From: Anaeromyxobacteraceae bacterium
GTDB lineage: Bacteria; Myxococcota; Myxococcia; Myxococcales; Anaeromyxobacteraceae
Assembly (NCBI GenBank): GCA_035762305.1
Contig: DASTPH010000096.1
Coordinates: 984-64,983, forward strand
DNA: 64,000 nucleotides
Direction: 5' to 3'
Positions 19,581 to 43,646 of the stretch are shown in pieces. Numbering within the stretch: position 1 is the stretch's first letter; the number at the start of each line of letters is the position of its first letter. Made by a program: the position numbers and the translations under genes. The notes beneath the pieces are model-generated. The model searched no databases. It was not told the DNA's origin and saw only the letters and a program-made list of their open reading frames with translations.

Positions 19581-20321
19581 TCACCGCCCGTAGAAGCTGG
19601 CCTCCAGCACCGCCAGGAAGAGGTTCGAGAGGGCGTGCACCAGCACCGGCGCGGCCAGGTCGCCGCTGCGGGCCCGGAGCCACCCGAAGAGCAGGCCGGG
19701 GAAGAAGGTGCCCAGGCGCCAGGGCTGGAGACGGACCAGGTGCCCCAGGGCGAACAGCGCCTGGGTGGCGAGGAAGCCGCGCCCCAGGTCGGCTCCGAGC
19801 AGGCGGACCCTCCGCGACGGGTCGCTCGCCGCCCACGAGGTCTGCATCCATCCCCGGTAGAAGAGCTCCTCCGGGAGCGCCACCACCAGCAGCTGGCTCA
19901 GGGCCAGGAGCCCGAAGCCGTCGGGGAGGCGCAGGCGCGGCCCCGCCGGCGGCCCGTAGGGCGCGAGGAGCCGGGCCCATCCCGGGGGCAGCTCCGGGAG
20001 GAGGCGCGAGAAGGCGGCGAAGCCGAGGACGAAGAGCGGGAACACCACCGCGCACACCCCGAGGGCCCAGAGCGCGCCCCGCCCCCAGGCCCGCCAGGTG
20101 CGCCCGTCCCGGACGCCCCACCAGGGCAGGCCGTAGCGCTCCCAGCGCTCGCCGCGGGCGCGCAGACGGCGGTCGGGGAGCACCACGAAGAGCAGGGCCG
20201 CCACGCCGGCCAGGTTCCCGCGCAGGAGCCCGGTCGGCTCGACGAGCGAGACGGCGCTGGCGGCCGCCAGGAGCCCGACGGCCGCGGCCCAGGTGGCGAG
20301 GAGCGCGCGGGGGGCGTCCAC
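19581..20321 (-). CDS. CPBP-family intramembrane glutamic endopeptidase (CAAX protease-like)
   Basis: All three CPBP motifs are present: PEELFYRGW (EExxxR), ALFALGHL (FxxxH), HALSN (HxxxN). Polytopic; GTG start. Confidence 0.85.
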   Translation of the reverse strand: MDAPRALLATWAAAVGLLAAASAVSLVEPTGLLRGNLAGVAALLFVVLPDRRLRARGERWERYGLPWWGVRDGRTWRAWGRGALWALGVCAVVFPLFVLGFAAFSRLLPELPPGWARLLAPYGPPAGPRLRLPDGFGLLALSQLLVVALPEELFYRGWMQTSWAASDPSRRVRLLGADLGRGFLATQALFALGHLVRLQPWRLGTFFPGLLFGWLRARSGDLAAPVLVHALSNLFLAVLEASFYGR

Positions 20322-20476
20322 CGGCCCTGTTTCGCCCGGGCCGGGGCGGGAGTCAAATCCCCCGAATGGCTGTGGGGTCCGCTCTCACCCTGTCACCATC
20401 CGTGCGCGCGGGTCGTAGGAACCCCACCGGCCTGCCGTGGTATGACCCGTGAAGTTTGTCCAGGAGGAGGGCTCAC

Positions 20477-23400
20477 ATGCGTCACCCCGACCGTTCCCGG
20501 TTCCGCCGCGTCGCCCCGGCGCTGGGGCCGGCGCTCCTCGCCGCCCTGGCGCTGGTGCTCATGGCCCCGACCTGCCAGCCCACCACACCAGGGGTGAAAA
20601 CGTTCGCCAAGGGGTCGATCGTCATCCCCATGGACGCCTGCTACCAGGGCGACGCCGCGGTGACCCCCACCTCCTGCTCGGCGCGCGACGTCGGCAACGT
20701 CATCCAGGCCTACGGCCTGGTCTACCAGCTCATCCGCAACAACATCCCGGTCTACTGGGTCATCAAGCAGAACAAGGCCTCGCTCACCGACGTGGACCTC
20801 ACCGTCCAGCTCTCGGGCGGCCCGCCGGTGGGGGTCTACGACTGGACCAACGGCGCCACGGGCGGCATGCCGCCCAGCAACGCCAACCCCATCGACTACC
20901 GCGGCGGCCCCTTCGTCGTCGACGCCAGCGACTTCGCGGCGGCGAATGCCCTGTTCCAGACCGGCAACGCCGGGACCGGCACGCCGGCCCTGAAGACCCT
21001 CTACTCGGCCGTGAACCTTCACGTCACTCAGGTGGCCTTCCAGGGGTACGCCGCCAAGACCTTCGCCGGAGGCTGGAACGCCGGCGGGACGGTGGCCCCG
21101 AAGCTGGCCCTGCTCAACATCCCGGGCGGCGACGGACGCTACGCCGACCACGTGCTGGAGGGCTATCTCATCCGGGCGGCGCTGGCGCCGGCCTGCGTGC
21201 TCAACAACCCGCCCTGCGCCGACAACTCCGCCGGCACCGCCAGCCCCTCCGGCCACGGGACCATCTACGACCGGCTGGAGGCGGCGGACTTCATCCCCCC
21301 GACCTGCACCAGCACCGCCCAGTGCCAGGCCGTCGAGCCGACCTCGATCTGCGACACCGGAGCCGGGCGTTGTGACTGGAAGGCGACCAACTTCCATAGA
21401 TACAGCTACCGGATCCTCTGGCTGCCTCATTGGAAGGGCCCGAACTCCTGCGAGGGCGTCCTCGGCAACGGCTACTCGTGCGGCACCGGCTTCGGCGGCT
21501 GCGGCTTCGCCGGAAGCGACACCTGCAGTTGCGTCAACAACTGCACCGCCCAATTGACCGCCGCCGAGCTCGACCTGGTACTCAGGACCATCGGCGCCTT
21601 CCAGCAGGCGGGCAACGACGTCTTCGGGGAGTGCGCCGGCCTGGGGACGCTCGAGGGCGTCTACAACGCCGGGACGGCCACGGTGGACGGCTCATTCGGC
21701 GACGGCGAGGCCACCAGCCGCTTCCAGACGTCGTGGGGGACGGGCGGCTCGGGCGGCGGCATGCACATCAGCGCCACCGCGCCGACGGCGGCCTGTACCG
21801 CCGGCCAGGGCAGCAAGCAATGCGTGAACGGCGCGCTCTACGAGCCGTCCTACTACCCCTCTCCCTTCCTGCAGCTCGGCGACTTCCCCTTCACGCCGGT
21901 GAGCGGCGCCATCACCGAGTACCGCCCCGCCACCGGCAACGGCGCCACCGGCTACGTGGGCGGGGTGGCCACGCTCATCGCGCGCATGAACGGCGGCACC
22001 GAGGTCGACTACTTCACGTTCCTCCCGGGCGTCGCCGACCGAGGCAACGTGGTCTACCTGGGCGGCCACGACTACTCCGGCTACCAGGGCACCTTCCAGA
22101 TCGCCGGCACGCGCCTGGTCCTGAACACCCTCTTCAACCTGGGCGCCGCCTGCGTGGAGACCTTGGCCCCCTGCAGCACCGGGCAGCTCGGCGTCTGCGG
22201 CGAGGGGGAGATGCGGTGCGTCGGGAGCGTCCCCACCTGCGTGCAGAAGAACCAGCCGTCGGCGGAGGTCTGCGACGGCAGGGACAACGACTGCAACGGC
22301 GCGGTCGACGACGGCCTGGTCCAGTCCTGCTACGACGGCCCGGCCGGGACCCAGGGCGTCGGCATCTGCCACGGAGGGACCAGGACCTGCGTGGAGACCT
22401 CGCCGGGCAACTTCGGGATGAGCGCCTGCCTGGGCCAGGTCCTCCCCGCCGCCGAGGAATGCAACGGCCTCGACGACGACTGCGACGGCCAGGTGGACGA
22501 CGGCCTCGGTTCGCGATCGTGCTACGACGGCCCGCCGGCCACGCAGGACGTGGGCACCTGCCGGGCCGGCACCCAGACCTGCTCCAGCGGGAGCTGGGGC
22601 ATCTGCAACGGCGAGGTGCTGCCCCTGGGCTACGACGTCTGCGAGCCGGTCCAGGACACCAACTGCAACGGCGCCGTCGGCGACGGCTGCGGCTGCTACC
22701 CCCAGGGCTCGACGCGCCCGTGCTACGGCGGGCCGGCCGGGACCGAGAACGTGGGCATCTGCCGCGGCGGCGCGCAGACCTGCGGCGCCAGCGGCATCTT
22801 CGGCAACTGCGACGGCGATGTCCGCCCAGGCGCCCGAGCCTGCAACGGCCTCGACAACGACTGCGACGGCGTCGTCGACACCGAGCAGCTGTGCTGCGAC
22901 GGCGGCGCTCCGGCGTCGAGCCGCACCTGCTACGGCGGACCAGCCGGCACGCTGGGCGTGGGCGTCTGCCGCGGCGGCACGCAGATCTGCGTGGGCGCCG
23001 CCTGGTCCTCGGGGTGCGACGGCCAGATCCTCCCCGGCCCCGAGCTCTGCAACGCCAAGGACGACGACTGCAACGGCGTCCCGGACGACGGCACGCCCAT
23101 CTGCCCCCCCGGCTCGAGCTGCGTGAACGGCGTGTGCGTGCCGGGCTCCTGTGGTCCCGAGGGGCCGTTCTGTCCGGGCGGCTACACCTGCACCGGCGCG
23201 AGCTGCGTCATCGGGAACTGCGGCGCCGGCGGCCCCTGCACCAACGGCCAGGTCTGCCAGGGCGGTACCTGCGTCGACCCGTGCGCCGCCATGACCTGCG
23301 GCCCGGGCGCCTACTGCTCCGGCGGCCTGTGCGTCGGCGGCGGCTGTTATGTCACCGGCTGCCCCGCCGGCCAGCTGTGCGTGCAGGGCACCTGCCAGGC

Positions 23401-25879
23401 CGACCCCTGCGCCGGCCGCTCCTGCCCGACCGGGACCTTCTGCCGCGAGGGCTACTGCGTGCAGTCCTGCGTCTTCGTCGCCTGCCCGACGGCCCAGCGC
23501 TGCGGCCAGGACGGCTTCTGCCAGGCCGATCCCTGCTCCGGCACGATCTGCGGCGCGGGCCAGGTGTGCCTGAACGGCACCTGCCAGACCAACCAATGCG
23601 CCTCGGTCACCTGCGGCGCGGGCCAGGTCTGCAATCCCGAGAACGGCACCTGCGTCCCCGATCCCTGCACCGGCGTGACCTGCCCGGTGGGTCAGTGCCT
23701 CTCCGGGCAGTGCTACTCCTCCAACCCCGGGGGCGGCCCGGCCCCGCCGCCGCCCATCGGCCCAGACGTGAAAGAGTCCTCCGGCTGCGGTTGCGGCTCG
23801 GCTCCGGCCGGCGAGCTGGGGCTGCTCCTCCTCGGCCTGCTCCTCCCCTGGCGTCGGCGCGCCGCCCGCCGGGCCGCGATCCGCCATCGGAGGTCGCTTC
23901 GCCACGCCGGGGCGGCGCTGGCCCTGTTCCTGGCCCTGACCGCCGCCGGCTGCTCCTCCAAGGAGGAGACGCCGAACCCCTGCACCAACCCCAACTGCAA
24001 CGGCGCCTGCGTCGACTTCCAGAACGACCCCGCCAACTGCGCGACCTGCGGCCACGCCTGCTCCGCCGGGCAGATCTGCGTGGAGGGGGCCTGCGGCCCC
24101 TCGTCGGCGGTGGCGCCGCAGATCACCGGCGTGAGCCCGGCCTCGGCCGCGAGCGGCACCACCCAGGCGGTGAGCCTCACCGGCCAGCGCTTCCAGGCCA
24201 ACGCCCAGGTGGTCGTGCTCGGGGCCGGGGCCCAGGCGGTGACCGCCTCGGTGGCCGACTCCGGCCACCTCTCCGCCACCCTCGACTTCACGGCGGTCTC
24301 TCCGGGCGCAGCCGAGATCCGCGTCGTGAACCCGGACCACGTCATCTCCAACGGCGCGGACTTCGACGTCACCCTGGCGGCGCCGGTGCTCACCGGCCTC
24401 GCCTGCCAGGGCGCTTCCTGCGTGCCGGCGAGCGGGACCTCGGCCACCACCGCCGTGGGCTCGGGCAGCCCGGTTGCGGTGACGCTGGTGCTCTCGGGGA
24501 CCGGCCTGGTCTCGTCGAGCCAGTGCCGGATCGCCTCGACGAACTTCCCCGAGATGGCCCTGCCCTCGGCCCTGTCCGGCGGGCAACTCCAGTGCACGCT
24601 CGACCTCCGCCTGACGGATCCCGGCGACTACCAGGTGACGGTGATGAACGGCGGCGTGGCCCGGTCCAACCCCCTGACCTTCACGGTCCTCACCAACACC
24701 CCGACGCTCACCTCCATCAGCCCCACCGCCGCCCGGGCCGGCGAGGTGGTGGCCCTCACCGTCACCGGGAGCGGCTTCGACCAGTCGAGCGAGGTCCTGG
24801 TCGACGGGTCCACCACCTTCAACGGCTCGGCCATCGTCACCACCTTCGTCTCGGGCACGCGCCTCGTCGCCCAACCAGTCGACCTGCGCGGCGCAGCCGC
24901 GGAAACGCACACCGTCACCGTGCGCAACGGCGCCACCGCCGGGACCGGCTCCGCCACCTTCACCGTCGACCCGGCCGCCCCGACGCTCTCCACCGTCTCC
25001 CCGACCTCGGCCAGGCAGGGCGCGGCCGTCGCCCTGCAGGTCACCGGCGCCAACTACGACGCCTCGACCCGGATCGAGGTCCAGGCGCCCGGCGCCGGGA
25101 CCTTCACGCCCATCGCCGCCACCGTGGTCGACTCGGCCACTCAGGCCCATGCGCCCTACGCCTTCGGCCAGGAGGGCTCCTGGCTGGTGCGCGTCACCAA
25201 CGCCGCCGGCGCCTCCGGCCCGCTCTCGGTGCGCGTCCTCTCCAACGTGGCCATCCTCTCCGGCGTGTCGCCGGCGAGCGCCCAGCAGGGGCAGACGGTG
25301 ACCCTGACCCTCACCGCCACCAACCTCGACGCCTCGCCGACCGTTCACCTCGCCTCCCCCTCGCTGGGCTGCCCCACCGCCCCGTGCAGCCTGGACCGCA
25401 CCCCTACCGTCTCGGGCAGCACGCTCACGGTAACGGGCCTGTCCCTGGCCGGCTGGGACGCCGGGACCTACGCGGTGACGGTGGTAAACCCGGGAGCGGC
25501 GGGCTCGAACGCGCTCGGGTTCACGGTCACGCCGGGCGCGCCGACGCTGGCCGCTCCGGCGAGCCCGGCCTGCGTGCTCCAGAGCGCGACGCCGACGACG
25601 GTGACGCTCACCGGGACCAACTTCGCCAAGCCCGACGCCGGCGGCAACGGCGGCTCGACCGTCCACGCCTCGTCGGCTGCCATCCCGGATTACGTGGTGC
25701 CGGGGGTCACCGTGACCAGCACCACCACCCTCACGGTGAGCTTCGACTCGTCGGCGGCGATCCCGGACAACTACACGCTCCAGGTCTGGAACCCCGGCCC
25801 TGCCATCCTCAAGTCGGGCACCATCCCCTTCAAGGTGGCTGCCAGCTACGCCGCGCCTCCCTTGAACGCCTGTCCGTAG
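20477..25879 (+). CDS. Giant secreted/cell-surface protein with several domain types
   Basis: Domain order: unknown N-terminal domain, MopE-like CxxxDxDCxG repeats, CxxGxxC repeats, internal MYXO-CTERM-like tag, lipobox, IPT/TIG-like repeats. RBS ggaggagg lies 6 nt before ATG 20477 (the track starts at TTG 20456). Signal peptide ALLAALALVLMAPTC. 5 x C(D/N)GxD(N/D)DC(N/D)GxVDD and 4 x CY(D/G)GPxxTxxVGxCxxGxxxC. SGCGCGSAPAGELGLLLLGLLLPWRRR at 23780-23860, then LFLALTAAGC. About 6-7 Ig-like repeats of the P(T/Q)(L/I)TxxSPxSA type. No stop codon in 5.4 kb. Confidence 0.8.
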   Translation: MRHPDRSRFRRVAPALGPALLAALALVLMAPTCQPTTPGVKTFAKGSIVIPMDACYQGDAAVTPTSCSARDVGNVIQAYGLVYQLIRNNIPVYWVIKQNKASLTDVDLTVQLSGGPPVGVYDWTNGATGGMPPSNANPIDYRGGPFVVDASDFAAANALFQTGNAGTGTPALKTLYSAVNLHVTQVAFQGYAAKTFAGGWNAGGTVAPKLALLNIPGGDGRYADHVLEGYLIRAALAPACVLNNPPCADNSAGTASPSGHGTIYDRLEAADFIPPTCTSTAQCQAVEPTSICDTGAGRCDWKATNFHRYSYRILWLPHWKGPNSCEGVLGNGYSCGTGFGGCGFAGSDTCSCVNNCTAQLTAAELDLVLRTIGAFQQAGNDVFGECAGLGTLEGVYNAGTATVDGSFGDGEATSRFQTSWGTGGSGGGMHISATAPTAACTAGQGSKQCVNGALYEPSYYPSPFLQLGDFPFTPVSGAITEYRPATGNGATGYVGGVATLIARMNGGTEVDYFTFLPGVADRGNVVYLGGHDYSGYQGTFQIAGTRLVLNTLFNLGAACVETLAPCSTGQLGVCGEGEMRCVGSVPTCVQKNQPSAEVCDGRDNDCNGAVDDGLVQSCYDGPAGTQGVGICHGGTRTCVETSPGNFGMSACLGQVLPAAEECNGLDDDCDGQVDDGLGSRSCYDGPPATQDVGTCRAGTQTCSSGSWGICNGEVLPLGYDVCEPVQDTNCNGAVGDGCGCYPQGSTRPCYGGPAGTENVGICRGGAQTCGASGIFGNCDGDVRPGARACNGLDNDCDGVVDTEQLCCDGGAPASSRTCYGGPAGTLGVGVCRGGTQICVGAAWSSGCDGQILPGPELCNAKDDDCNGVPDDGTPICPPGSSCVNGVCVPGSCGPEGPFCPGGYTCTGASCVIGNCGAGGPCTNGQVCQGGTCVDPCAAMTCGPGAYCSGGLCVGGGCYVTGCPAGQLCVQGTCQADPCAGRSCPTGTFCREGYCVQSCVFVACPTAQRCGQDGFCQADPCSGTICGAGQVCLNGTCQTNQCASVTCGAGQVCNPENGTCVPDPCTGVTCPVGQCLSGQCYSSNPGGGPAPPPPIGPDVKESSGCGCGSAPAGELGLLLLGLLLPWRRRAARRAAIRHRRSLRHAGAALALFLALTAAGCSSKEETPNPCTNPNCNGACVDFQNDPANCATCGHACSAGQICVEGACGPSSAVAPQITGVSPASAASGTTQAVSLTGQRFQANAQVVVLGAGAQAVTASVADSGHLSATLDFTAVSPGAAEIRVVNPDHVISNGADFDVTLAAPVLTGLACQGASCVPASGTSATTAVGSGSPVAVTLVLSGTGLVSSSQCRIASTNFPEMALPSALSGGQLQCTLDLRLTDPGDYQVTVMNGGVARSNPLTFTVLTNTPTLTSISPTAARAGEVVALTVTGSGFDQSSEVLVDGSTTFNGSAIVTTFVSGTRLVAQPVDLRGAAAETHTVTVRNGATAGTGSATFTVDPAAPTLSTVSPTSARQGAAVALQVTGANYDASTRIEVQAPGAGTFTPIAATVVDSATQAHAPYAFGQEGSWLVRVTNAAGASGPLSVRVLSNVAILSGVSPASAQQGQTVTLTLTATNLDASPTVHLASPSLGCPTAPCSLDRTPTVSGSTLTVTGLSLAGWDAGTYAVTVVNPGAAGSNALGFTVTPGAPTLAAPASPACVLQSATPTTVTLTGTNFAKPDAGGNGGSTVHASSAAIPDYVVPGVTVTSTTTLTVSFDSSAAIPDNYTLQVWNPGPAILKSGTIPFKVAASYAAPPLNACP

Positions 25880-25921: not shown

Positions 25922-26311
25922 TCACTCTTCCTCGCCGGCCGGGCCGATGGCCTTCTCCACCAGGGCCACGGCGGCCTCCGGCGCGAACGGCTTGCGCAGG
26001 ACCTCGTCGGCCCCGATGCGCCGGTACATCCCCATCTCCTGGTCGGAGACGCGGGCGCTCATGAGGACCAGGTACGTCTTCTTCCAGTGGGGGTGGGCCT
26101 TCACCAGCCGGCACACGTCGGCGCCGTTGATCTTCGGCATGTAGATGTCGAGGAGCAGGGCGTCGGGGTCGGCCTGGGCCATCTTCCGGAAGACCTCCTC
26201 GCCGTCGACGGCGTGGGACACGTCGTACCCCGCCTCCTCGAAGGCCCCGGTCAGGGCCTCCAGGAGCGCCGGGGAGTCGTCGACGATGAGGACCGCCTTC
26301 TTCTTTCCCAT
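25922..26311 (-). CDS. Single-domain response regulator (CheY-like receiver)
   Basis: Start MGKKKAVLIVDDSPALL. Phospho-acceptor region LLLDIYMPKINGADV, then LMSARV and LRKPF. The rest of the 480-aa track ORF upstream is an artefact. Confidence 0.85.
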   Translation of the reverse strand: MGKKKAVLIVDDSPALLEALTGAFEEAGYDVSHAVDGEEVFRKMAQADPDALLLDIYMPKINGADVCRLVKAHPHWKKTYLVLMSARVSDQEMGMYRRIGADEVLRKPFAPEAAVALVEKAIGPAGEEE

Positions 26312-26338
26312 CCCCGAGTGCTTATACTCCAGGGCGCG

Positions 26339-27154
26339 ATGGATCGCGAACCCGCCGTCGCCGGACGATTCTACCCGGCCGGAAAAGAGCGGCTCGGCAC
26401 CGAGGTGGCCGCGCTCCTGGCCGAACGCCCCAGCGGCCGGGCCACCGCCGAGCCGCCGCGGCCGGTGACCGGGGTCCTCGCCCCCCACGCGGGATACGTC
26501 TACTCGGGCCGGGTGGCCGGAGCGACCTATGCGCGAGTGGACGTCCCCGAACGGGCCGTGGTGATGTGCCCCAACCACACCGGCCGGGGCGCCCCGATCT
26601 CGGTGTGGCCCGACGGGGGCTGGTTGACCCCGCTGGGGCGGGTGCCGGTCGACCAACAGCTCACCTCCTCCCTGCTTTCGGGCGATCTCGCCACCGCGGA
26701 TCGCGAGGCGCACCGCTTCGAGCACGCGCTCGAGGTTCAGCTGCCCTTCCTGCAGCTCCGCCGCCCCGAGGTGTCCATCGCCGCGGTGTGCCTCGGCCCC
26801 CTCTCCTTCGCGCGCTGCCAGGCGGTCGGCAAGGCGGTGGCGGAGGCGGCCCGGCGACGCCCGGCGCTGCTGGTGGCCTCGAGCGACATGAGCCACTACC
26901 TCCCCGCCGCCCGCGCCCGCGAGAAGGATACCCGGGCCCTGGAGCGCTTCCTGGCTCTCGACCCGGCGGGTCTCTACGAGGTGGTGCGCCGCGAGGACAT
27001 CAGCATGTGCGGCTACGTGCCGGCCACGGTGATGCTGGTGGCGGCCCTGGAGCTGGGCGCGCGCGAGGCCGAGCTGGTGCGCTACGGCAACAGCGCCGAG
27101 GCCAGCGGCGACGAGGGCTCGGTGGTCGGATACGCCGGCGCCGTCGTCTACTGA
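26339..27154 (+). CDS. amrB: MEMO1-family protein (AmmeMemoRadiSam system protein B-like)
   Basis: Motifs PAVAGRFYPA, VLAPHAGYVYSG, SSDMSHY, GNSAEASGD. Start at ATG 26339. Confidence 0.8.
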   Translation: MDREPAVAGRFYPAGKERLGTEVAALLAERPSGRATAEPPRPVTGVLAPHAGYVYSGRVAGATYARVDVPERAVVMCPNHTGRGAPISVWPDGGWLTPLGRVPVDQQLTSSLLSGDLATADREAHRFEHALEVQLPFLQLRRPEVSIAAVCLGPLSFARCQAVGKAVAEAARRRPALLVASSDMSHYLPAARAREKDTRALERFLALDPAGLYEVVRREDISMCGYVPATVMLVAALELGAREAELVRYGNSAEASGDEGSVVGYAGAVVY

Positions 27155-27180
27155 CCGGCCTCGCGGCCACGGGTGTGCGC

Positions 27181-27421
27181 GCCGTCGGCCCCGGACTCGC
27201 CTTCGGCCGCTGGTCCTCGCTCGCGTCCGCGACAGCCGGACCGCGCGACGACGGGGAACGGGTTGCGGCTCGCAAGCGTCGGTCGCGCAGTCCGCGGCTC
27301 CTCCTGAGCATTGGCGCTCCACGACGGTTGCTCGCCGCGACCGCGAGAGCCGCCGCGCGCGCATCCGGGCGCGAGGGTGCTCGCTGCGGAGGCGGCCTCA
27401 GTCGAGTCCGGGGCCGCCGGC
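27181..27421. repeat. IR-bounded ~240-bp intergenic repeat, copy C
   Basis: Terminal inverted repeat gccgtcggccccggactcgcc / gtcgagtccggggccgccggc, 19 of 21 complementary. The core shares gctggtcctcgctcgcg, gcggctcgcaa, ttggcgctcc, tcgccgcga and gctcgctgcggaggc blocks with copy B in the same order. Confidence 0.75.
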
Positions 27422-27432
27422 GCCATCCCGCA

Positions 27433-28413
27433 TCAGGGCCACAGCGGATACCGCGCCTTCCGCCGCCACAGGAGCAGCGCCAGGAGGCCGAGCCACCCCT
27501 CCGCTCCGGCGGTGCCGCAGCCGCAGCTCGACGACCGCTCGCAGGTGGAGGAGGGGCGCGGGGCGACCTGGCCCGATCCGTAGCACACGTTGGTGGGCTG
27601 TCCGGACGGGTAGATGGCGCACAGGCCGGCGACGTCGTCCGGGTCCAGCGTCCGCTTGGCGGTCTCGCCGGACAGCGCCGAGGGGTACATGGTGGCGGCG
27701 GAGACCTCCGAGTGGCCCAGCCCCAGCACGTGGCCGGCCTCGTGCGTCACCACGTTCCGGACGTCCACGCTGATGCAGCCGCTCTGCCCGGGCGCGCCGC
27801 AGGTGGCAGCGGGCGGATCGAGGCAGGTGAAGTAGAAGCCGGGCGGGGATGGCCCGCTGCCGCCCCAGGCGTTGAGCTCCATGTCCGCGTCCACGATCTC
27901 GCCGGTGCCGGCGTCGTAGCTCACCGTGGTGAGGGCGATGACGCGGCTGTCGCCGTGGGACGGGTCGTCGCCGTCCCAGCAGTTGTACTTGTCGGCGCAG
28001 TTCACGGTGGCGGAGCCGTCGACGTCCCACAGCCGGCACGGGTCGTCCGGGGGAACCAGGTCCTGACACTGGCCGCGCCGGAACACCACCAGGTTCCGGC
28101 AGTCGAGGCCGGTGGCGGTGGAGGAGGTCGTCCCGTCCTCGACCGTCTGCATGTCGGTGCATCCGCCGGCGCCGGCCCAGGTGGTGAAGCTCGTCCGCAC
28201 CGCGTCTATGGCGGCCGCGGCGCCGCCGGGCGGCGAGGGCGAGCTGCTGCAGACGCTGGCCGCCGGGCTCGCCGCGAAGTCGTTGACCGCGTAGTGGACC
28301 TGGCGGGTGGACCACCACAGGCACAGGCCCGAGCCGGTGGTCGAGCGCACCCAGGCGTCGCCCGGCGAGGCCCAGAGGAGCAGCGCCGCGGCGCCCGCCA
28401 GGCGGCGGCTCAC
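27433..28413 (-). CDS. Matrixin/metzincin-type zinc metalloprotease with MYXO-CTERM-like C-terminal tag
   Basis: VVTHEAGHVLGLGHS (HExxHxxGxxH) plus Met-turn ATMYP. Signal peptide present. C-terminus SSSCGCGTAGAEGWLGLLALLLWRRKAR. GTG start overlaps the upstream stop (GTGA). Confidence 0.85.
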   Translation of the reverse strand: MSRRLAGAAALLLWASPGDAWVRSTTGSGLCLWWSTRQVHYAVNDFAASPAASVCSSSPSPPGGAAAAIDAVRTSFTTWAGAGGCTDMQTVEDGTTSSTATGLDCRNLVVFRRGQCQDLVPPDDPCRLWDVDGSATVNCADKYNCWDGDDPSHGDSRVIALTTVSYDAGTGEIVDADMELNAWGGSGPSPPGFYFTCLDPPAATCGAPGQSGCISVDVRNVVTHEAGHVLGLGHSEVSAATMYPSALSGETAKRTLDPDDVAGLCAIYPSGQPTNVCYGSGQVAPRPSSTCERSSSCGCGTAGAEGWLGLLALLLWRRKARYPLWP

Positions 28414-36303: not shown

Positions 36304-38085
36304 TCAGAACCCCTTCAGGGCGCCCTTGTGGAAGTCGGCGTGGCACCCGGCGCAGGTCTTGGGCAGGCCGCGCCAGCGCCGGACCTTCACGCCGTCCACC
36401 CTGACCTCGGCGTGGCAGGCCTCGCACTTGGCCCTGGCGTGCCGGCCGGTGAGGGCGTAGTCGGTGAAGGGGGGCTCGTGGCGGAAGCGGGCGGCCTTCC
36501 AGTCCTCGGCGCCGTGGCAGCGGCCGCAGTCGGTCCGGTCGCGAGACGAGCGGGCGAACTGGGCGCCGTGCGGGTCGGCATGGCAGGCGGCGCAGGCGCT
36601 CTCCACGCCGCCGTAGCGGGCCGCGCCGGTCCGGGTCCGGGAGTGGCAGGCGGCGCAGGCGGCCGTGAGGTGTTTCCCCTCCAGCGGGAAGCGGGTCTGC
36701 CCGTGGTCGAAGCGGGTGCGGGCGAAGGTGGTCACCTCGTGACAGCCGGCGCAGCCCTGGGGCCCGCCCTTCTTCGAGAACTCGGGGCCGTGCGGGTCGG
36801 CGTGGCAGGTCTCGCAGCGGGAGAGATCGCCGGCCACGTGGTAGACCGCCAGCGAGAGCTTCACCGGCCGGCCGCGCCGCTGAAGCTCGGCCCGGACCGC
36901 AGCCGGGAAGCGCTCGCCCACCCGCGGATCGCTCTGGTGGCAGGCCGAGCAGGCGACGGTGCGGTGCGCCCCCTCGAGCGGGTAGCGGCTCCGGGCGTGC
37001 TCCTCCGGGCCGTAGCTCACCGGCTGGTACCCGGCCAGCGAGTGGCAGCGGTCGCAGCGGCCGGCGTCGGGCCCGGAGCGCAGCATCTGGCCGCCGTGGG
37101 CGTCGGCATGGCAGTCGGAGCAGGCGGCGAAACCGAGCCCCTTCCAGAGCGGGGCCTCGGCGCCGAACGGGCCGTGGCAGGCCTTGCACTCCACCTCTGC
37201 ATGCCGCCCCTCCAGCGGGTAGCGGGTCTTCTGGTGGAAGGCGCGATCCTCGCCGGCGCGGGCCACCAGCGTCCGCCAGTCGGCGGGGGTGTGGCAGCGC
37301 TGGCAGGCAGGCCCGAACCGGCCCTGGTGCGGGTCCTTCTGGTGGCAGTCGGCGCAGGCGGCGTGGGCCACCGGCCGGTAGCGCAGGAAGTCCTTGCGGC
37401 GCGGGGCGCCCGGGCCCATCTCGGCGCCGTCCTCCAGCCGCGGGTGGCACTTGTCGCAGGCCACCCTGGCGTGCTTGCCCTGGAGCGGGTAGGCGGTGCG
37501 GGCGTGGTCGAAGCCCGGGGCCGGCTTCCAGCCCTTCTCGTCGTGGCACGTGCCGCACTCCCGTCCCAGCTGGCCGCGGTGCTCGTCGGCGTGGCAGGCC
37601 GAGCATGCCGACGGCGCCCCCAGGAACGTGGCGCGGCCCGGCTTCTTCTCGAGCCAGGCCCGGATGCCCGGGTCCGCGACCAGGGCCCGATCGTGGCACT
37701 TCTCGCAGCCCACGGGCGCGTGCTTGCCGCGCAGCGGCGTCCCGGTCCGAGCGTGGTCGAAGCGCGCCCGCCCGCCCGGCCCCCAGTCCACCAGGGCGAA
37801 GTCCCGCCCCTGGTGCTCGTGGTGGCAGGTCCAGCAGTCGCGCTCGGCGCCCGCGAGCCGCCCGTGGAGCCCGCGTCCGGCGGCCAGCGAGCCACGGAGC
37901 TCCTCGTGGCAGGCGAGGCACGACTCCTGCGCCAGCCGCCGCCCCTCGGGGTGGCAGCGGGTGCAGCTCTTCATGCCCTCCAGGGAGGCGTGCGGCTTCG
38001 CCAGCTCGCCCGGGGAGAAGAGATCCACCGCCAGGGCGGCGGGGGCGAGGGCGATGAGGCAGGCGGCGATCAGGGCGCGGGCCAA
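36304..38085 (-). CDS. Multihaem c-type cytochrome, 20 CXXCH
   Basis: TTG start with GAGGA RBS, 13 nt after the upstream stop. Signal peptide ARALIAACLIALAPAALA. 20 CXXCH by manual count, arranged as repeated F(D/R)HxxTx(F/Y)PLxGxHxxxxCxxCH modules. Confidence 0.9.
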   Translation of the reverse strand: MARALIAACLIALAPAALAVDLFSPGELAKPHASLEGMKSCTRCHPEGRRLAQESCLACHEELRGSLAAGRGLHGRLAGAERDCWTCHHEHQGRDFALVDWGPGGRARFDHARTGTPLRGKHAPVGCEKCHDRALVADPGIRAWLEKKPGRATFLGAPSACSACHADEHRGQLGRECGTCHDEKGWKPAPGFDHARTAYPLQGKHARVACDKCHPRLEDGAEMGPGAPRRKDFLRYRPVAHAACADCHQKDPHQGRFGPACQRCHTPADWRTLVARAGEDRAFHQKTRYPLEGRHAEVECKACHGPFGAEAPLWKGLGFAACSDCHADAHGGQMLRSGPDAGRCDRCHSLAGYQPVSYGPEEHARSRYPLEGAHRTVACSACHQSDPRVGERFPAAVRAELQRRGRPVKLSLAVYHVAGDLSRCETCHADPHGPEFSKKGGPQGCAGCHEVTTFARTRFDHGQTRFPLEGKHLTAACAACHSRTRTGAARYGGVESACAACHADPHGAQFARSSRDRTDCGRCHGAEDWKAARFRHEPPFTDYALTGRHARAKCEACHAEVRVDGVKVRRWRGLPKTCAGCHADFHKGALKGF

Positions 38086-38098
38086 GGGTCCTCGAGGT

Positions 38099-40315
38099 TC
38101 AGTCGAGCAGGATGAGGCCGTAGCCGAGCCACAGCGAGACGCCGATGTGGGCGGCGATGGCCAGGACCAGGAAGACGGCCAGCGAGGCGTGGAAGATGCG
38201 CCAGCCGCGCATGAGCGACTTCAGCGAGCGCGAGAGCGCGATCTGCAGCCGGAGCTGCTCCAGCCGGTGCATGTCGGCGGCGAACTCGGCGAAGGCGGCC
38301 CGGCTGGGGAAGGCCCGGGCGGCGCGGCGCAGGGCGCGCCAGGAGGCGAGCGACTGCAGCGGCAGGTGCACCAGCGAGCCCACCATCGAGCGCGGCGGCA
38401 ACGGCGCCGTCACCGCCTCGAAGAGGCGGCGCAGCGGGGCCGGGTCCGTGGCCTGGGCCAGGAGCGGCTCGACCTCGGCGCGGGCTCGCACGAAGGACCC
38501 CTGCAGGTCCTCCACCTCCAGGGCCTTGCCGCCCGAGGACGGGATCAGCCCGTAGATGAAGCGCCCCACCACGCCGGTCGCCACCACCACCCCGAGGGCG
38601 GAAGCGGTGGCGGTGGCGAGCAGGTTCTTCGACTGGAAGGCGGCGTGGAAGGCGATGACCAGCGGGCTCATGAAGCCCACGAAGACGTGGAAGAGCAGCC
38701 ACAGCCGGATGTCCCCCAGGCCGGAGAGGAGCGGCACCCGCTTGCGCGCCGCGTAGAGGAAGTTCGAGAGCATGAAGGCGGTGGCGGCGATGCCCACCCC
38801 GTGCCCGAAGGGGCCGGCCGACTTCAGCGAGGCGTGCAGGGAGAGGCGCAGCCGCTCCCGCCACGGGGTCAGGTAGTAATCCCAGCCGCGCCAGGCCAGG
38901 AACGCCAGCAGCGCCGCCCCCAGCGCCGCGTAGAGGACCGACAGGCGCCGCTCGCGCGCCCGCTGGGCTCGCTCCCGCGCCTCGGCGTGGCCAGCGCTGG
39001 AACGCGCCCCGCGGGCCTCGCCGAAGTAGCGCCGCATGGAGACGCCGGCCTTCTGGAGCAGCTCGGCCGGGGCCTCGCCGCCCACGCTCACCAGCACGAA
39101 GTCGTTGTCGAGGCGGAGCGGCCGGCCGGCCATCTCCAGATCCACCTCGTGGGCTTCGATGCCGCGCACCTGGGAGCTGGGGAGCAGCCGCAGCCTCCCG
39201 GCCTGGCCCAGGGCGGCGGCGCGCTGACGGTTCGGGGCCCGGCAGGAGGGGTCGGGCTTGCGGTAGGAGAGGACCACCTGGGCGTCGGTCTCCTCGGCGA
39301 GCTGGCAGGCGGCCTCCACCCCCGAGTCGCCGCCGCCCACCACCAGCACCCGGGTGCCCCGGTACTGCTGCGGCTCGTCGAGGTCGTAGACCACCTTGGC
39401 CCGGTCCTCGCCCGGAACCCCCAGCTTGCGGGGAGTGCCGCGCCGCCCCACCGCCAGCACCACCTGCCTCGCCGGCACCGGCCCTTGCGCGGTGAGGACC
39501 GTGAAGTCGCCCTCCTGCCCCTCGACGCCCGTGACCCGCATCCCCTGCTCCACCGCCAGGCCCGCCTTGTCCACCATGCGCCGGAAGGCGGCGGTGAGCT
39601 CCTCCTTGGAGATGCGCCGCTTCCCGAAGCGCCCGTAGAAGGGAAGCGTCACCGTCTCGGTCATCACCACCTTGCCGCGGGGGTAGTGGGCCACCGCGCC
39701 GCCGAGGACGTCCTGCTCCAGCAGGCGGAAGCCGATGCCGCGGGCCCGCGCCCCCAGGGCCGTGGCCAGCCCGGCCGGGCCGGCGCCCACGATGGCCACC
39801 TCGGCCTGTCCCGGCCGGACCGGCCCGCGGCGCTCCGCCAGGTGCTCCGCCACCTCCAGCCCCTGGCGGAGGGCGTTCTTGATGAGCCCCATGCCGCCCA
39901 ACTCGCCCACCACGAAGACGCCGGGCCGAGACGACTCGAAGACCTCGGAGAGCTCGGGCAGCTCCAGGCCGCGCCGGGCGGTACCGAACACCAGCTGGAT
40001 GGCGCCCACCGGGCACTCGGCGGCGCAGCGCCCGTGGCCGATGCAGTTCTCGCCGTGCACCAGGGTGGCGGTCCCGTGGACCATCCCCAGGATGTCGCCC
40101 TCCGGGCAGACCTTCACGCAGGAGAGGCTACCGATGCAGACGTCCGGGTCGATGACCGGGTGGAGCGAGCGGGGGAGGTTCCGCTCCTCCCCGGCCCGCC
40201 CGAGGGCCTCGGAGGCGGCGGCGGCGCGGCGCGCCCGGTGCAGGGCGTAGATCCCCGCCATGACGACCGCGGCGCCGACCGCCACCGCCGGGAACACGAT
40301 CTGCGAGAGATCCAC
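38099..40315 (-). CDS. Membrane-anchored fusion protein with FeS, flavin and putative haem-b domains
   Basis: Domain order: N-terminal TM helix, two ferredoxin-like motifs, FAD/NAD(P)-dependent oxidoreductase, C-terminal multi-TM domain with twin H-x13-H helices. N-terminal TM followed by HRARR. CIGSLSCVKVCP and CIGHGRCAAECP. Two dinucleotide folds VAIVGAGPAGLA and VLVVGGGDSGVE. C-terminal TM helices LLFHVFVGFMSPLVIAFHAAF and IFHASLAVFLVLAIAAHIG. Confidence 0.8.
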   Translation of the reverse strand: MDLSQIVFPAVAVGAAVVMAGIYALHRARRAAAASEALGRAGEERNLPRSLHPVIDPDVCIGSLSCVKVCPEGDILGMVHGTATLVHGENCIGHGRCAAECPVGAIQLVFGTARRGLELPELSEVFESSRPGVFVVGELGGMGLIKNALRQGLEVAEHLAERRGPVRPGQAEVAIVGAGPAGLATALGARARGIGFRLLEQDVLGGAVAHYPRGKVVMTETVTLPFYGRFGKRRISKEELTAAFRRMVDKAGLAVEQGMRVTGVEGQEGDFTVLTAQGPVPARQVVLAVGRRGTPRKLGVPGEDRAKVVYDLDEPQQYRGTRVLVVGGGDSGVEAACQLAEETDAQVVLSYRKPDPSCRAPNRQRAAALGQAGRLRLLPSSQVRGIEAHEVDLEMAGRPLRLDNDFVLVSVGGEAPAELLQKAGVSMRRYFGEARGARSSAGHAEARERAQRARERRLSVLYAALGAALLAFLAWRGWDYYLTPWRERLRLSLHASLKSAGPFGHGVGIAATAFMLSNFLYAARKRVPLLSGLGDIRLWLLFHVFVGFMSPLVIAFHAAFQSKNLLATATASALGVVVATGVVGRFIYGLIPSSGGKALEVEDLQGSFVRARAEVEPLLAQATDPAPLRRLFEAVTAPLPPRSMVGSLVHLPLQSLASWRALRRAARAFPSRAAFAEFAADMHRLEQLRLQIALSRSLKSLMRGWRIFHASLAVFLVLAIAAHIGVSLWLGYGLILLD

Positions 40316-40487
40316 CTGTCGACCACCCGAGGTGGGATTGTCCGGCCGCGGGATGTGGTAGGGCTTTGTCCCCGGTCAATCGGTGGGGAGCCCCGTAGGG
40401 GGCGTCACAGCGGCAGCCAGTTCCCGTGATTCCCCGGCGGCACATGCCGCCGCTGTGAGTCGAGGTCCGGGGCCTGCGGCGCCTCGA

Positions 40488-40551: not shown

Positions 40552-41232
40552 TCAAAGCTCCTGGATCCCGCCGTCCTGCATCCGCATGCGGCGTCCGGCG
40601 CGGCCGGCCAGCTCGGAGTTGTGGGTCACCATGACGAAGGTCGTGCCCCGCTCCCGGTTCATCCTCATGAAGAGCTCCATCACCTCGGCCTCGGTCTGCT
40701 CGTCGAGGTCGCCGGTGGGCTCGTCGGCCAGCACCAGCGACGGCGCGTTCATGAAGGCGCGGGCGATGGCCACGCGCCGCTGCTGGCCGCCGGAGAGCTG
40801 CGACGGGTAGGCGCCGGCCCGGTCGCCGAGCCCGACCAGCCGGAGCAGCTCCACGGCCCGGGTCTCGGCCCCGTTGAGCGGACCGGCCCGGGGGCGGAGC
40901 GTCACCGGCAGGAGCACGTTCTCCCTGGCCGTCAGGACCGGGAGCAGGCTGGCGAACTGGAAGACGAACCCCACGTGATCGCGCCGGAAGGCGGTGAGCC
41001 GATCGCCGTCCAGGGCGTAGAGGTCGGCGCCGTCCACCAGGACCCGGCCCGACGAGGGCCTGGCCATGCCGCCCAGGATCGAGAGCAGCGTGGTCTTGCC
41101 GGAGCCGGAGTGGCCGACGATGGAGACGAAGTCGCCGCGCTCGACGGTGAACGAGACGTCCTTCACCGCCTCGGGGCGGTCCCCGCCGGCCGCGAAGCGC
41201 TTCTCCACTCGCTCCACCACCAGGTGCGGCAC
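40552..41232 (-). CDS. ABC transporter ATP-binding protein (MacB/LolD-type)
   Basis: Walker A GHSGSGKTTLLS, signature LSGGQQRRVAIARA, Walker B LVLADEPTGDLD. Confidence 0.9.
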   Translation of the reverse strand: MPHLVVERVEKRFAAGGDRPEAVKDVSFTVERGDFVSIVGHSGSGKTTLLSILGGMARPSSGRVLVDGADLYALDGDRLTAFRRDHVGFVFQFASLLPVLTARENVLLPVTLRPRAGPLNGAETRAVELLRLVGLGDRAGAYPSQLSGGQQRRVAIARAFMNAPSLVLADEPTGDLDEQTEAEVMELFMRMNRERGTTFVMVTHNSELAGRAGRRMRMQDGGIQEL

Positions 41233-41233
41233 C

Positions 41234-42430
41234 CTACTCCTCCTTCAGCACCATGAACGGCTCGATGCGCCCGGCGCGGCGGATGGGCAGGAGCGCGCCC
41301 AGCACGCACACGCCGGTGCCGACGAGCAGGCCCACCGCCGCGATGGTGGCGCGCTCTCCTCCGCCGAGGTCGGCGGTGACGCTCCGGAGGATGGCGAATC
41401 CCCGCGCCGGCACGAGCGAGAGGGCGGTCCCGAAGAGGACCCCCAGGGCGCTGCCGAGCCCCCCCACCATCACCACCTCGGTGAGGAAGAGCCGGATCAC
41501 GTGGGACTCGGTGGCCCCGATGGCCCGCAGGATCCCCACCTCGCGGGCCCGCTCGTTGGCGACCCCGGAGAAGACCGCCCAGGCCAGGCAGGCGGCCATG
41601 AGCGAGGCCACGGCGATGAAGGCCGCGAAGACCCGGCGGATGTCGCCCAGGGCGCCGAGGACGCTCTTGCCCACGTCCCGCCGCGCCACCGCGTCCACCT
41701 CGACGATGGAGTCGTCGATGCGGCCGGCCACCACCTGGGGATCGACGCCCGGCTCGACCCTGGCGAAGATGACCGAGACCTGGCCCTCGGCGACCCGGGG
41801 CTTGCCCTTGCGGATGAGGTCCTGGACGTTGCTCCGGTCCACGAACACGGCGGTGTCGAGCCCGGTGCCGGTCTTCTCGAGAACCCCCACCATCCTGAAG
41901 ACGTTGCCGAACAGGACCGCGTCCACGTCGGTGAGGCCCAGGCCGATGTTGAGCGCCGACTCGCTCCCCACCAGGGCCTCCCCGTGGCCCAGGTTCCGAT
42001 GGAGCGCCCGGCCGAGCCAGGGCTTCACCACGAAGTCGGTTTCCTGGTCGAACGCGACCACCATGGTGTCTGGCACGTCGCAGCAGGCTCCGCCCAGGGT
42101 GACCAGATAGGTCTGGGCGGTGACCCGCTCGATCCCGGGCACGGCCCGGACCCGTTCGACCAGGCCCCCCTCCATGTAGAAGCCCTTGACCCGGTGGTCG
42201 ATGAGCACGTCCTCGGCCGAGCCCCGGGAGCCGGTGGGCACCACCAGGACGTCGGCGCCGAGCCGGTCGGCGGTCTTGCGGATGCTCGACTCGACCCGGC
42301 GGACGAAGGACAGCCCGAACACCAACGACGAGACCAGGAGGCCGATGGCCGCGACCAGGATGGCGGCCCGCGCCGGACGTCGCGCCAGGTTCTTGAGGGC
42401 GTGCCTGGAGAGGCCGAAGGCCTTGGGCAT
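41234..42430 (-). CDS. ABC transporter permease (FtsX/MacB-type with large periplasmic domain)
   Basis: TM1, about 220-aa periplasmic domain, then 3 TM helices. FtsX-type REVGILRAIGAT. CC pair (GGACCDVPD) in the periplasmic domain. Confidence 0.85.
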   Translation of the reverse strand: MPKAFGLSRHALKNLARRPARAAILVAAIGLLVSSLVFGLSFVRRVESSIRKTADRLGADVLVVPTGSRGSAEDVLIDHRVKGFYMEGGLVERVRAVPGIERVTAQTYLVTLGGACCDVPDTMVVAFDQETDFVVKPWLGRALHRNLGHGEALVGSESALNIGLGLTDVDAVLFGNVFRMVGVLEKTGTGLDTAVFVDRSNVQDLIRKGKPRVAEGQVSVIFARVEPGVDPQVVAGRIDDSIVEVDAVARRDVGKSVLGALGDIRRVFAAFIAVASLMAACLAWAVFSGVANERAREVGILRAIGATESHVIRLFLTEVVMVGGLGSALGVLFGTALSLVPARGFAILRSVTADLGGGERATIAAVGLLVGTGVCVLGALLPIRRAGRIEPFMVLKEE

Positions 42431-42497
42431 GGGGGCGCTCGCGGGGGGCTCGCTCCACCCGGCCGGAGCCGGGCGGAACGAGCCCGCGCCAGGGAAG

Positions 42498-43646
42498 CTA
42501 CTTGCCGAAGTTGGCGGCGAGGCCGCAGAGGATGGCGTTCTTGTCGCCCTTCCCCATGTCCTTGTGGCAGCCGAAGCACACCGAGGCGGTCTTGCCCACC
42601 AGCTTCTTGGCCCCGACGTCGTAGAGCGCCAGGGTGCCGTCGGTGATCTTCTTGTCGGGCGTGGGCTTGCCCTCGGGGTCGCACCCCTGGGTGTCGGCGG
42701 TGCGCAGCGTCAGCAGCGCGTACTTCCCGTCCGGGGTGGGCTGCACGTCGTGGTTCTCGCCCAGGGCCGGCTTGGTCATCTTCTCGTCCACCATCTTCAG
42801 CGTCTTGGCGTCGATGACCCACATCCGGTCGGCTGCCGACTGGAAGATGAGCTTGTCGTCCCGGCTGAAGTACTGCCGGAAGGTGATGGTCTTCCCCGGC
42901 TCACCGGCCAGGGTGTTCTCGGCCAGCTTCTTGAACTTGCCCTTCTCGAGCGCCGGGAGGTCGAGCATGACGAACGCCTGCTTGCCGTTCATGTTGCCGT
43001 CCTCGCCCTTCAGGCTCAGCGCCACGACGAACTTCTTCAGATCATTGGAGTTGGTGCCGTGCAGGAACTGGTAGGAGCCGGGCTTGAAGCCGAGGTCGCT
43101 GATGAACATCCGCCTCTCGTGCTTCATGGTCTTCTTGTCGAAGACGTCGATGTACCCCTCGGTCCCCATGAACACCGGCATGAAGGCGTTCTTGCTCTGG
43201 CCCGAGGCGCAGTAGACCGGGCCGGTCTTGGCGGGGGACCTGGCATCGGGCGTCAGCGCCACGTCCTTCACCACCTCGCCGGTCTTCAAGTTGGTCTTGC
43301 CCACGTGCATCTTGCCCTCCTTGTCGAGGGCGTAGGTGGACCAGAAGAGGGTGTTCGCGTCGGTGGCGTCGAGGCGCGCGTCGTGGGTCTTGTGGCTCTC
43401 GGTGGTGCCGATGGCCACCATCTCGAGGTTGTTGACGGTGACGGGCTGGTCGGCGTTGGACGGGTCGACGGTCACCTGCGCCTTGGAGAAGTGGCCGCCG
43501 TGGCCGGCCACGTAGACGGTGGCGGCGTAGGTGCCCGACTTGGCGGGCGCGGCCGGAGGCGCCTTGGCCGAGGCCACCGGCGCGACGAGGTAGGCGAGAA
43601 GGGCGAGCGCGACTGCTGGGGCGAAAACGGCGAGTGTCTTCTTCAT
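42498..43646 (-). CDS. Secreted Lys-rich protein, probable beta-propeller, with a single C-terminal CXXCH haem-c motif
   Basis: RBS GGGAG 8 nt before ATG 43646. Signal peptide MKKTLAVFAPAVALALLAYLVAPVASA. His clusters AGHGGHF, ESHKTHD, FLHGTN, ENHDV. C-terminal CFGCHKDMGKGD. Confidence 0.7.
   Translation of the reverse strand: MKKTLAVFAPAVALALLAYLVAPVASAKAPPAAPAKSGTYAATVYVAGHGGHFSKAQVTVDPSNADQPVTVNNLEMVAIGTTESHKTHDARLDATDANTLFWSTYALDKEGKMHVGKTNLKTGEVVKDVALTPDARSPAKTGPVYCASGQSKNAFMPVFMGTEGYIDVFDKKTMKHERRMFISDLGFKPGSYQFLHGTNSNDLKKFVVALSLKGEDGNMNGKQAFVMLDLPALEKGKFKKLAENTLAGEPGKTITFRQYFSRDDKLIFQSAADRMWVIDAKTLKMVDEKMTKPALGENHDVQPTPDGKYALLTLRTADTQGCDPEGKPTPDKKITDGTLALYDVGAKKLVGKTASVCFGCHKDMGKGDKNAILCGLAANFGK

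Follow-up and report, generated by a model that had tools for sequence, protein, structure and literature searches.

What does a cell make from an open reading frame (ORF) in which a sorting tag of the kind that should end a protein runs straight into a lipoprotein signal peptide? The question is raised by a gene at 20477..25879 (+) of a 64,000-nucleotide stretch of DNA, hereafter the window, that comes from an Anaeromyxobacteraceae metagenome-assembled genome (contig DASTPH010000096.1, positions 984 to 64,983). The gene encodes 1,800 amino acids followed by a stop, and a MYXO-CTERM-type sorting tag and a lipoprotein-type signal abut in the interior of its product. Our comparative analysis makes it probable that the ORF encodes a conserved, Sec-exported envelope polyprotein, which would yield two separately lipid-anchored proteins by way of a membrane hairpin that is cut on both sides. 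ATG 20477 is the most likely start within a frame that is open over 1,808 codons (20456..25879, +). The GC content at third codon positions (GC3) is 0.96 for the whole frame, in a window of ~70–78% GC over the profiled stretch (19–27 kb), and an NCBI protein from an Anaeromyxobacteraceae metagenome-assembled genome, P0001, is identical to the 1,800-residue window product.

At the junction frame 1 reads ...PDVKESSGCGCGSAPAGELGLLLLGLLLPWRRRAARRAAIRHRRSLRHAGAALALFLALTAAGCSSKEE..., and residues ~1101–1163 are SSGCGCGSAPAGELGLLLLGLLLPWRRRAARRAAIRHRRSLRHAGAALALFLALTAAGCSSKEE. The order of elements in this one frame is SSGCGCGS, LGLLLLGLLLPW, RRRAARRAAIRHRRSLR, HAGAALALFLALTAAGC and SSKEE. SSGCGCGS is the tag signature, with Cys1104 and Cys1106 (23777..23800, +; tag Cys codon 23786–23788); LGLLLLGLLLPW is the hydrophobic helix of the tag (23816..23851, +), for which we infer a stop-transfer role; and RRRAARRAAIRHRRSLR is an Arg-rich loop with nine basic and zero acidic residues (23852..23902, +). 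The h-region and lipobox, HAGAALALFLALTAAG up to the predicted cut before Cys1159, occupy 23903..23953 (+; Cys codon 23951–23953). The tag thus has the signature Cys, hydrophobic helix and Arg-rich cluster of MYXO-CTERM, in a genome that encodes the myxosortase MrtX, but it lies ~665–675 residues ahead of the C-terminus and stop instead of at the extreme C-terminus. The MYXO-CTERM model TIGR03901 scores 25 bits against the fragment 23720–23881 (cut-off 20) and 18.1 bits, slightly below that cut-off, when matched inside the whole first half. Likewise, the second segment has the basic n-region, the uncharged h-region and the lipobox ending in [GAS]-C that characterize substrates of signal peptidase II (SPII), but its Cys is residue 1159 of the protein rather than an N-terminal one ~15–35 residues from Met1.

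Reading of the DNA by eye finds no stop in any of the three + frames over 23840–23929. The window also has no in-frame ATG, GTG or TTG from the Arg cluster, including the loop, through the lipobox Cys. A preliminary description of the window had reported a tag followed by a lipoprotein signal in one frame with neither a stop nor a start codon between the parts, and both its translation and its coordinates prove exact. As such, a hidden stop or frameshift at this junction is rejected, the + frames all being open there. An internal translation start is rejected as well: the GGAGG at 23889–23893 simply results from the adjoining codons cgg-agg, has no start after it and lacks conservation.

A protein search returned ~85 relatives of 1,700–1,960 residues with 38–80% identity to the window protein. 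Those that carry names all belong to Anaeromyxobacter or Anaeromyxobacteraceae and include proteins from the complete A. oryzae chromosome and from strains PSR-1 and Red801. We aligned 89 members with MAFFT and took counts over the 80 full-length sequences. Every one of these has, in a single ORF, the GC-motif Cys, the helix, the Arg cluster, the second hydrophobic segment and a Cys after G/A. The lipobox Cys is invariant and its −1 residue is G or A in 80/80, with h-regions that otherwise diverge freely. On the tag side, the aligned column is Cys in 72 of the 80 and the Cys is shifted by one or two residues (GGC) in the other eight; the spacing from tag Cys to lipobox Cys ranges from 44 to 105 residues. 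The loop between the two segments varies from 4 to 70 amino acids and is only slightly conserved in sequence outside the Arg cluster, and it always has at least four basic residues (median 6; acidic median 0). Because minimal versions exist, such as PLARRRRGAPLAAIALAVVVGGSGC in locus L012, one Arg cluster can be read as both tag tail and signal n-region, and the loop would thereby be shared by the tag, as its cytoplasmic tail, and by the next signal, as its n-region. When junction modules of the family are taken alone, 38 of 42 match TIGR03901.2 and 32 of 42 match TIGR03382, and the family median for the best 12-residue Kyte-Doolittle hydropathy of the tag helix is 2.6.

A PROSITE-type pattern is unspecific in proteins this rich in Cys and Gly: the core lipobox pattern PS00013 is present in 72 of the 80 junctions, but has 519 further matches elsewhere in the same proteins. 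We therefore adopted a composite test with four requirements: a Cys whose −1 residue is G, A or S, a 12-residue window that is hydrophobic, a final 12 residues free of charge, and two or more R/K upstream. The aligned junction Cys passes this test in 75 of the 80 proteins, and a neighbouring junction Cys passes in two more, P0021 and P0038; in P0021 the aligned Cys fails and its neighbour looks like the real lipobox. Outside the junction, no site passes among the 8,236 cysteines of these proteins. Kept in all full-length homologues and singled out by the composite test, the junction feature is more than chance.

The genome loci agree with the proteins. A DNA scan of one genome per species gave 13 loci, all Anaeromyxobacter-like, of which 10 hold the whole gene, and a single ORF of 1,748–1,969 codons runs through the junction in nine of those ten. 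The orthologue comparison suggested in the preliminary description, which was to look for a stop or separate genes at this position, thus finds the junction continuous in relatives and no separate genes; split orthologues are absent from the 13 loci, all of which are fused or cut by contig ends. At L015 (4590–9946) the gene appears as several separate tblastn pieces with a 476-codon ORF at the junction, and the junction itself is in one frame; this points to a frame broken at other places in the gene, whether by assembly error or because the gene is a pseudogene. Where an in-frame GTG or TTG is present near the junction, it falls within the h-region, 5–15 codons before the Cys. These candidates have neither a basic n-region nor a Shine-Dalgarno sequence and none is conserved, and in 3 of 11 loci the loop and h-region are entirely free of ATG, GTG and TTG. 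The lack of conservation, the position inside the h-region, the missing Shine-Dalgarno sequence and the three loci with no candidate together argue against a separate initiation of the second half.

The gene that diverges from the polyprotein gene encodes a protease for tags of this kind. It is mrtX (19584..20321, −), a myxosortase gene for a CPBP/Rce1-like intramembrane protease (NF040593, 193 bits, cut-off 180; PF02517), with ~155 bp between the two starts. Wherever enough upstream DNA is available, in 10 of 10 related loci, mrtX is the adjacent divergent gene, and the A. oryzae gene table shows it there also. MrtX cleaves the tag of TraA in a cysteine-dependent manner (Guo, Haft and Wall, mBio 2025, PMC11980579). 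The same study counts only three to six MYXO-CTERM proteins in Anaeromyxobacter and notes that divergent ORFs adjacent to mrtX carry the motif (PMC11980579); the window gene is evidently one of these ORFs.

The first half also exists as an ordinary MYXO-CTERM protein, since P0072, a paralogue of 1,053 amino acids with 50% identity to the first half, ends in a terminal tag, ...KCGCNG..FFVALAGWLSRRRRQSA and then the stop, which aligns to the Arg cluster of the internal tag. P0072 was considered as a split version of the gene and rejected, being a paralogue in another genomic context with an unrelated gene downstream. At its locus (L001, 937–4658) the stop codon overlaps the TTG start of an unrelated secreted protein (TTGA), an arrangement that looks like translational coupling. 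When the second half was used for a profile search, no close counterpart standing alone came up. Two candidates were rejected: P0142, a fragment whose start lies within the h-region, and P0146, which is only distantly related and itself has tag and lipobox. The fusion therefore appears to be old and fixed in the lineage.

The course of events that we propose would begin with the N-terminal signal sending the first half through Sec. The tag helix would stop transfer while the Arg cluster remains cytoplasmic, following the positive-inside rule, and the second hydrophobic segment would insert N-in/C-out and restart translocation, such that the second half is exported too. At this stage a hairpin of two helices, with a Cys at either periplasmic end, would anchor the precursor in the inner membrane. 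At the lipobox, Lgt would add diacylglycerol to the Cys and LspA would cut before it, giving an N-terminally lipidated second half; at the tag, the Cys would be lipidated and MrtX would then cut after it, as proposed for TraA. The first half, with its lipidated C-terminus, would become a type II secretion cargo bound for the cell surface as in the M. xanthus model, and the leftover hairpin peptide, ~45–105 residues if judged from the Cys-to-Cys spacing, would presumably be degraded. The likely benefit would be that a pair of partner proteins of the surface is made in 1:1 ratio, by analogy with TraA and TraB. We favour the polyprotein because both cysteines are conserved, the loop is basic, no start is conserved, mrtX is adjacent and the paralogue of the first half ends at the tag. 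One of the two options in the preliminary description had anticipated much of this, and its fusion, hairpin and two-sided cut remain the best fit to the comparative data. Its "sortase-like" enzyme does not stand, as MrtX is a CPBP/Rce1-type intramembrane glutamic protease and not a transpeptidase.

Several features weigh against such a polyprotein. The lipobox is loose, with mostly A/G and rarely L at −3 and with Pro at −2 or −3 in 8 of the 80 homologues, and both hydrophobic segments are short, the tag helix of the window having only 12 uncharged residues. The literature searched holds no precedent for LspA acting after a 1,100-residue N-terminal extension, and for the enzyme that lipidates MYXO-CTERM proteins there is only a candidate, Lgt (PMC11980579). 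The +2 residue is variable too, being K in 34 of the 80 and S in the window. A Lys at +2 marks inner-membrane lipoproteins in M. xanthus (PMC3222651); by that rule the variable +2 residue means that the final membrane of the second half may differ between species. Finally, the cleavage, the lipidation and the location of both products are predicted from sequence only.

The loose lipobox, which departs at −3 from the canonical L-[AST]-[GA]-C, would suit a scheme in which only the tag is cut: MrtX would free the first half, and the second half would stay in the inner membrane through the hairpin remnant or a signal-anchor, with no involvement of Lgt or LspA. Re-entry into the membrane may indeed be the essential property, as the unrelated proteins P0101, P0103 and P0104, described below, have an internal tag followed by a non-lipobox segment that is SPI-like (SPI, signal peptidase I) or anchor-like. 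A signal-anchor needs no Cys, yet both the Cys and the G/A at −1 are kept throughout the 80 homologues. Moreover, NF041328, the model of small free-standing Cys-rich proteins that are MXAN_6577-like, aligns onto the internal h-region from profile position 5, so that the second half begins like the precursor of a separate protein. On balance we regard cleavage at the tag alone as unlikely. More doubtful still is the idea that nothing is cut and that the product is a bitopic-hairpin protein of the inner membrane with two large periplasmic domains, its motifs being relics of the fusion. The topology would be identical, and the cuts that distinguish the two are themselves predictions, but relics should decay, and here both cysteines, the G/A at −1 and GCGCG persist down to 38% identity while the loop varies from 4 to 70 residues; the gene of a tag-specific protease is, in addition, a conserved neighbour. 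It is hardly credible that an error of sequencing or assembly, or a mutation of recent date, has run two ordinary genes together, or that the second half comes from an internal start. Apart from the oddity of the architecture, the point in favour is that the window is part of a metagenome-assembled genome; against it, the same continuous frame recurs in ~80 independent clusters and in complete isolate genomes, with no + frame stop at the junction, no conserved start or Shine-Dalgarno sequence and no close stand-alone second half. Recent loss of a stop or a sequencing error, the other option of the preliminary description, is accordingly refuted by these clusters and by nine of the ten whole-gene loci, among them the complete genome of a cultured strain.

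The first half, of 1,100 amino acids, is predicted to be adhesin-like and opens with an N-terminal signal peptide (20477..20575, +) that ends in the family-invariant LPLLAP[T/S]C[G/S/D], the Cys being Cys33. In 77 of the 80 homologues R/K and a hydrophobic run come before this N-terminal Cys, but a typical lipobox would not have T/S at −1 and P at −2; Cys33 may be a third lipidation site with an atypical lipobox, or a mere disulfide cysteine after an ordinary signal peptide. A globular domain of ~530 amino acids follows (20573..22171, +), with a model from AlphaFold 2 at a predicted local distance difference test score (pLDDT) of 78 and a predicted TM-score (pTM) of 0.83. Many of its residues are invariant, including IPMD.CYQ, YGLVY, GGPF, HW and LNTLFNLG. 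The domain has no sequence match in Pfam, NCBIfam or PDB, and a Foldseek fold search of the model gave nothing significant, its best matches being class-I glutamine-amidotransferase-like, ThuA and GH42 (glycoside hydrolase family 42) folds at E ≥ 0.04. The stalk (22172..23776, +) has MopE-like CxxxDNDCDG motifs (PF11617, 1.6e-10), Cys-rich CxxGxxC repeats and a final Pro/Gly-rich linker. In its predicted layout of globular head, Cys-rich stalk and tag, the first half resembles TraA-type surface receptors.

The second half, a predicted mature lipoprotein of ~640 amino acids (23951..25876, +), has no C-terminal sorting tag and ends in ...LNACP. It starts with a Stig1-like, MXAN_6577-like Cys-rich module (~23990–24097, +; NF041328, 8.6e-10; PF04885), which is followed by six Ig repeats of the CoaZ/IPT-TIG kind. 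These are the repeated PGGG domains of choice-of-anchor Z proteins, and NF058597 matches them in 6 stretches (1.3e-42, 143.8 bits, cut-off 30; PF01833). The change of domain content at the junction noted in the preliminary description is thus seen here, with MopE-like and Cys-rich repeats upstream and a Cys-rich module plus CoaZ/IPT-TIG repeats downstream. The last residues of many homologues are also conserved, being ...[ST]CP or ...FT[IV]xP after WNPGG..PQ[KR]S.

A second tagged protein is encoded 1.5 kb downstream of the polyprotein gene, at 27433..28413 (−). It is an M10-type metalloprotease whose best match is NF041905, the myxosortase-dependent metalloprotease family of MXAN_2677/2678, below the cut-off of that model (3e-67, 226.6 bits, cut-off 250). 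It ends in a MYXO-CTERM tag, SSSCGCGTAGAEGWLGLLALLLWRRKARYPLWP and then the stop, and this terminal tag is close in form to the internal one, as the preliminary description had observed. Thus mrtX belongs to a small gene cluster that also encodes predicted substrates of its product. Of the 10 mrtX-linked loci, 5 have a tblastn match to the metalloprotease, and these come from 4 distinct genomes since L002 and L006 both cover one A. oryzae region; L003 has a match besides; the A. oryzae neighbourhood includes a Peptidase_M10 gene call. Between the two tagged genes of the window, an ORF of 480 amino acids (25925–27364, −) has only a C-terminal response-regulator receiver domain, at residues 358–469, with its first 350 residues matching nothing assigned; in the matching position A. 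oryzae has a receiver-only gene of 128 amino acids. Further downstream lie a multihaem c-type cytochrome-like ORF (36307–38220, −) with weak HmcA/DmsE-type matches and, beside it, a ferredoxin/flavin oxidoreductase-like ORF (38102–40375, −), both below cut-offs, as well as a LolD-like ABC (ATP-binding cassette) ATPase and permease at 40555–42709 (−), also below family cut-offs. The window has no type II secretion, lgt or lspA genes, and its remaining genes are housekeeping or respiratory.

The same kind of junction is found outside the family. A 57-column profile of the junction module, run against 1.84 billion representative proteins, gave 41 matches. About 18 of these serve as a control, being ordinary tags that match the first half of the profile only and lie mostly at, or a few residues from, the protein C-terminus; nine are unrelated proteins with an internal tag and then a signal-like segment, and the rest include family members. 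P0113 has a tag, an LVLTAC lipobox, Kelch repeats and a second, terminal tag, and in P0099 the internal tag is followed by a lipobox-like VVGC. P0101 and P0103 have a tag, an SPI-type signal, a repeat of the whole architecture and a terminal tag, and P0104 has an internal tag followed by an SPI-type signal. Two junctions are present in each of P0119 and P0108, while P0098, from a 1.0-Mb contig, has four MYXO-CTERM units in tandem; P0100, from Planctomycetales (MCA9247495.1), has ten units of PEP-CTERM plus signal peptide in one ORF. Eleven proteins make up the P0103 cluster, and several such proteins recur in independent assemblies. As unrelated proteins carry it in independent assemblies, the junction looks like a recurring solution and not a one-off. 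We put forward, tentatively and at slightly less than even confidence, that sorting tag, basic loop and signal peptide form a general, reusable cassette for envelope polyproteins, a cleavable two-helix hairpin that would be cut by a sorting-tag protease and a signal peptidase so that a single ORF gives at least two surface proteins, each with its own anchor, in fixed stoichiometry. In the version of the Anaeromyxobacter family, both cuts would leave a lipidated Cys, at the C-terminus of one product and the N-terminus of the other, and the unit would be a near-symmetric Cys-helix-(+)-helix-Cys.

How far this departs from known systems is best seen part by part. The tag follows the MYXO-CTERM/MrtX system, for which TraA of M. 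xanthus is the prototype (Haft 2024; PMC11980579): the two-Cys GC signature, the helix and the Arg cluster are shared, as are the Cys-rich stalk and Pro/Gly-rich linker ahead of the tag. Unlike that of TraA, the tag of the window is not terminal, and its Arg tail runs directly into a second export signal. Internal MYXO-CTERM tags are known as rare cases that have been argued to be functional, by reference to work on LPXTG and on the archaeal protein HVO_0405 (PMC11980579). The closest described is MXAN_5598 of M. xanthus, whose internal tag was read as marking a fusion of TraA/TraB-like genes, with the N-terminal part processed and surface-anchored (PMC11980579). By published description, the basis of our comparison, it resembles the window protein in joining a large adhesin-like N-terminal part, by way of an internal MYXO-CTERM, to another envelope module. 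It differs in that the second part is an outer-membrane beta-barrel with an OmpA domain, for which no lipobox or re-entry signal is described, and in being a single rare case near ftsA/ftsZ rather than a conserved, mrtX-linked family.

The second signal, in turn, resembles lipoprotein precursors handled by Lgt, LspA and Lnt in its basic n-region, uncharged h-region, [AG]-C lipobox and Cys-rich mature start; unlike in those precursors, it is internal, 1,140 residues in, and has an n-region that is at the same time the tail of a sorting tag. An archaeal protein, HVO_0405 of Haloferax volcanii, is reportedly an ArtA substrate whose PGF tripartite signal lies away from the C-terminus (Abdul Halim et al. 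2017, cited in PMC11980579). It is an experimental precedent for a sorting-tag protease acting on a mid-protein tripartite tag. It stands apart from the window protein in being archaeal, cut by an archaeosortase and a Tat substrate, and its C-terminal part is not known to be re-exported by a second signal.

By analogy only, the proposed topology is that of viral envelope polyproteins in which a transmembrane segment precedes an internal signal, as in core-E1 of hepatitis C virus (PMC5402940) and Gn/Gc of bunyaviruses (PMC5113920). There, too, an internal signal restarts translocation, a host signal peptidase makes the cut and the membrane products are formed 1:1. The viral systems differ in using the eukaryotic endoplasmic reticulum and type I signal peptidase, with no lipidation and no sorting-tag protease. 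The literature searched holds no description of a lipoprotein signal after a tag, a conserved protein family built in this way or an export route for the distal part, and nothing relevant on polyproteins of bacteria in which a lipoprotein signal is internal or sorting tags stand in tandem. Rare internal MYXO-CTERM tags were thus known already; their pairing with a lipobox in a conserved, mrtX-linked family has no counterpart in that literature.

If the processing takes place as proposed, bacteria would make envelope polyproteins by abutting a sorting tag and the next signal peptide, a strategy familiar from the glycoprotein precursors of viruses. Annotation is affected as well, since predictors that assume terminal tags and signals miss such junctions; the current names of these proteins are "IPT/TIG domain-containing" or "MopE-related". 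The cassette, should it act as proposed, would be usable to co-display two proteins at a fixed ratio. It would also provide a natural substrate with a MYXO-CTERM Cys and a lipobox Cys at the periplasmic ends of one hairpin, which would bear on the identity of the lipidating enzyme, for which Lgt is a candidate (PMC11980579). For Anaeromyxobacter itself, the polyprotein may then be a principal substrate of MrtX.

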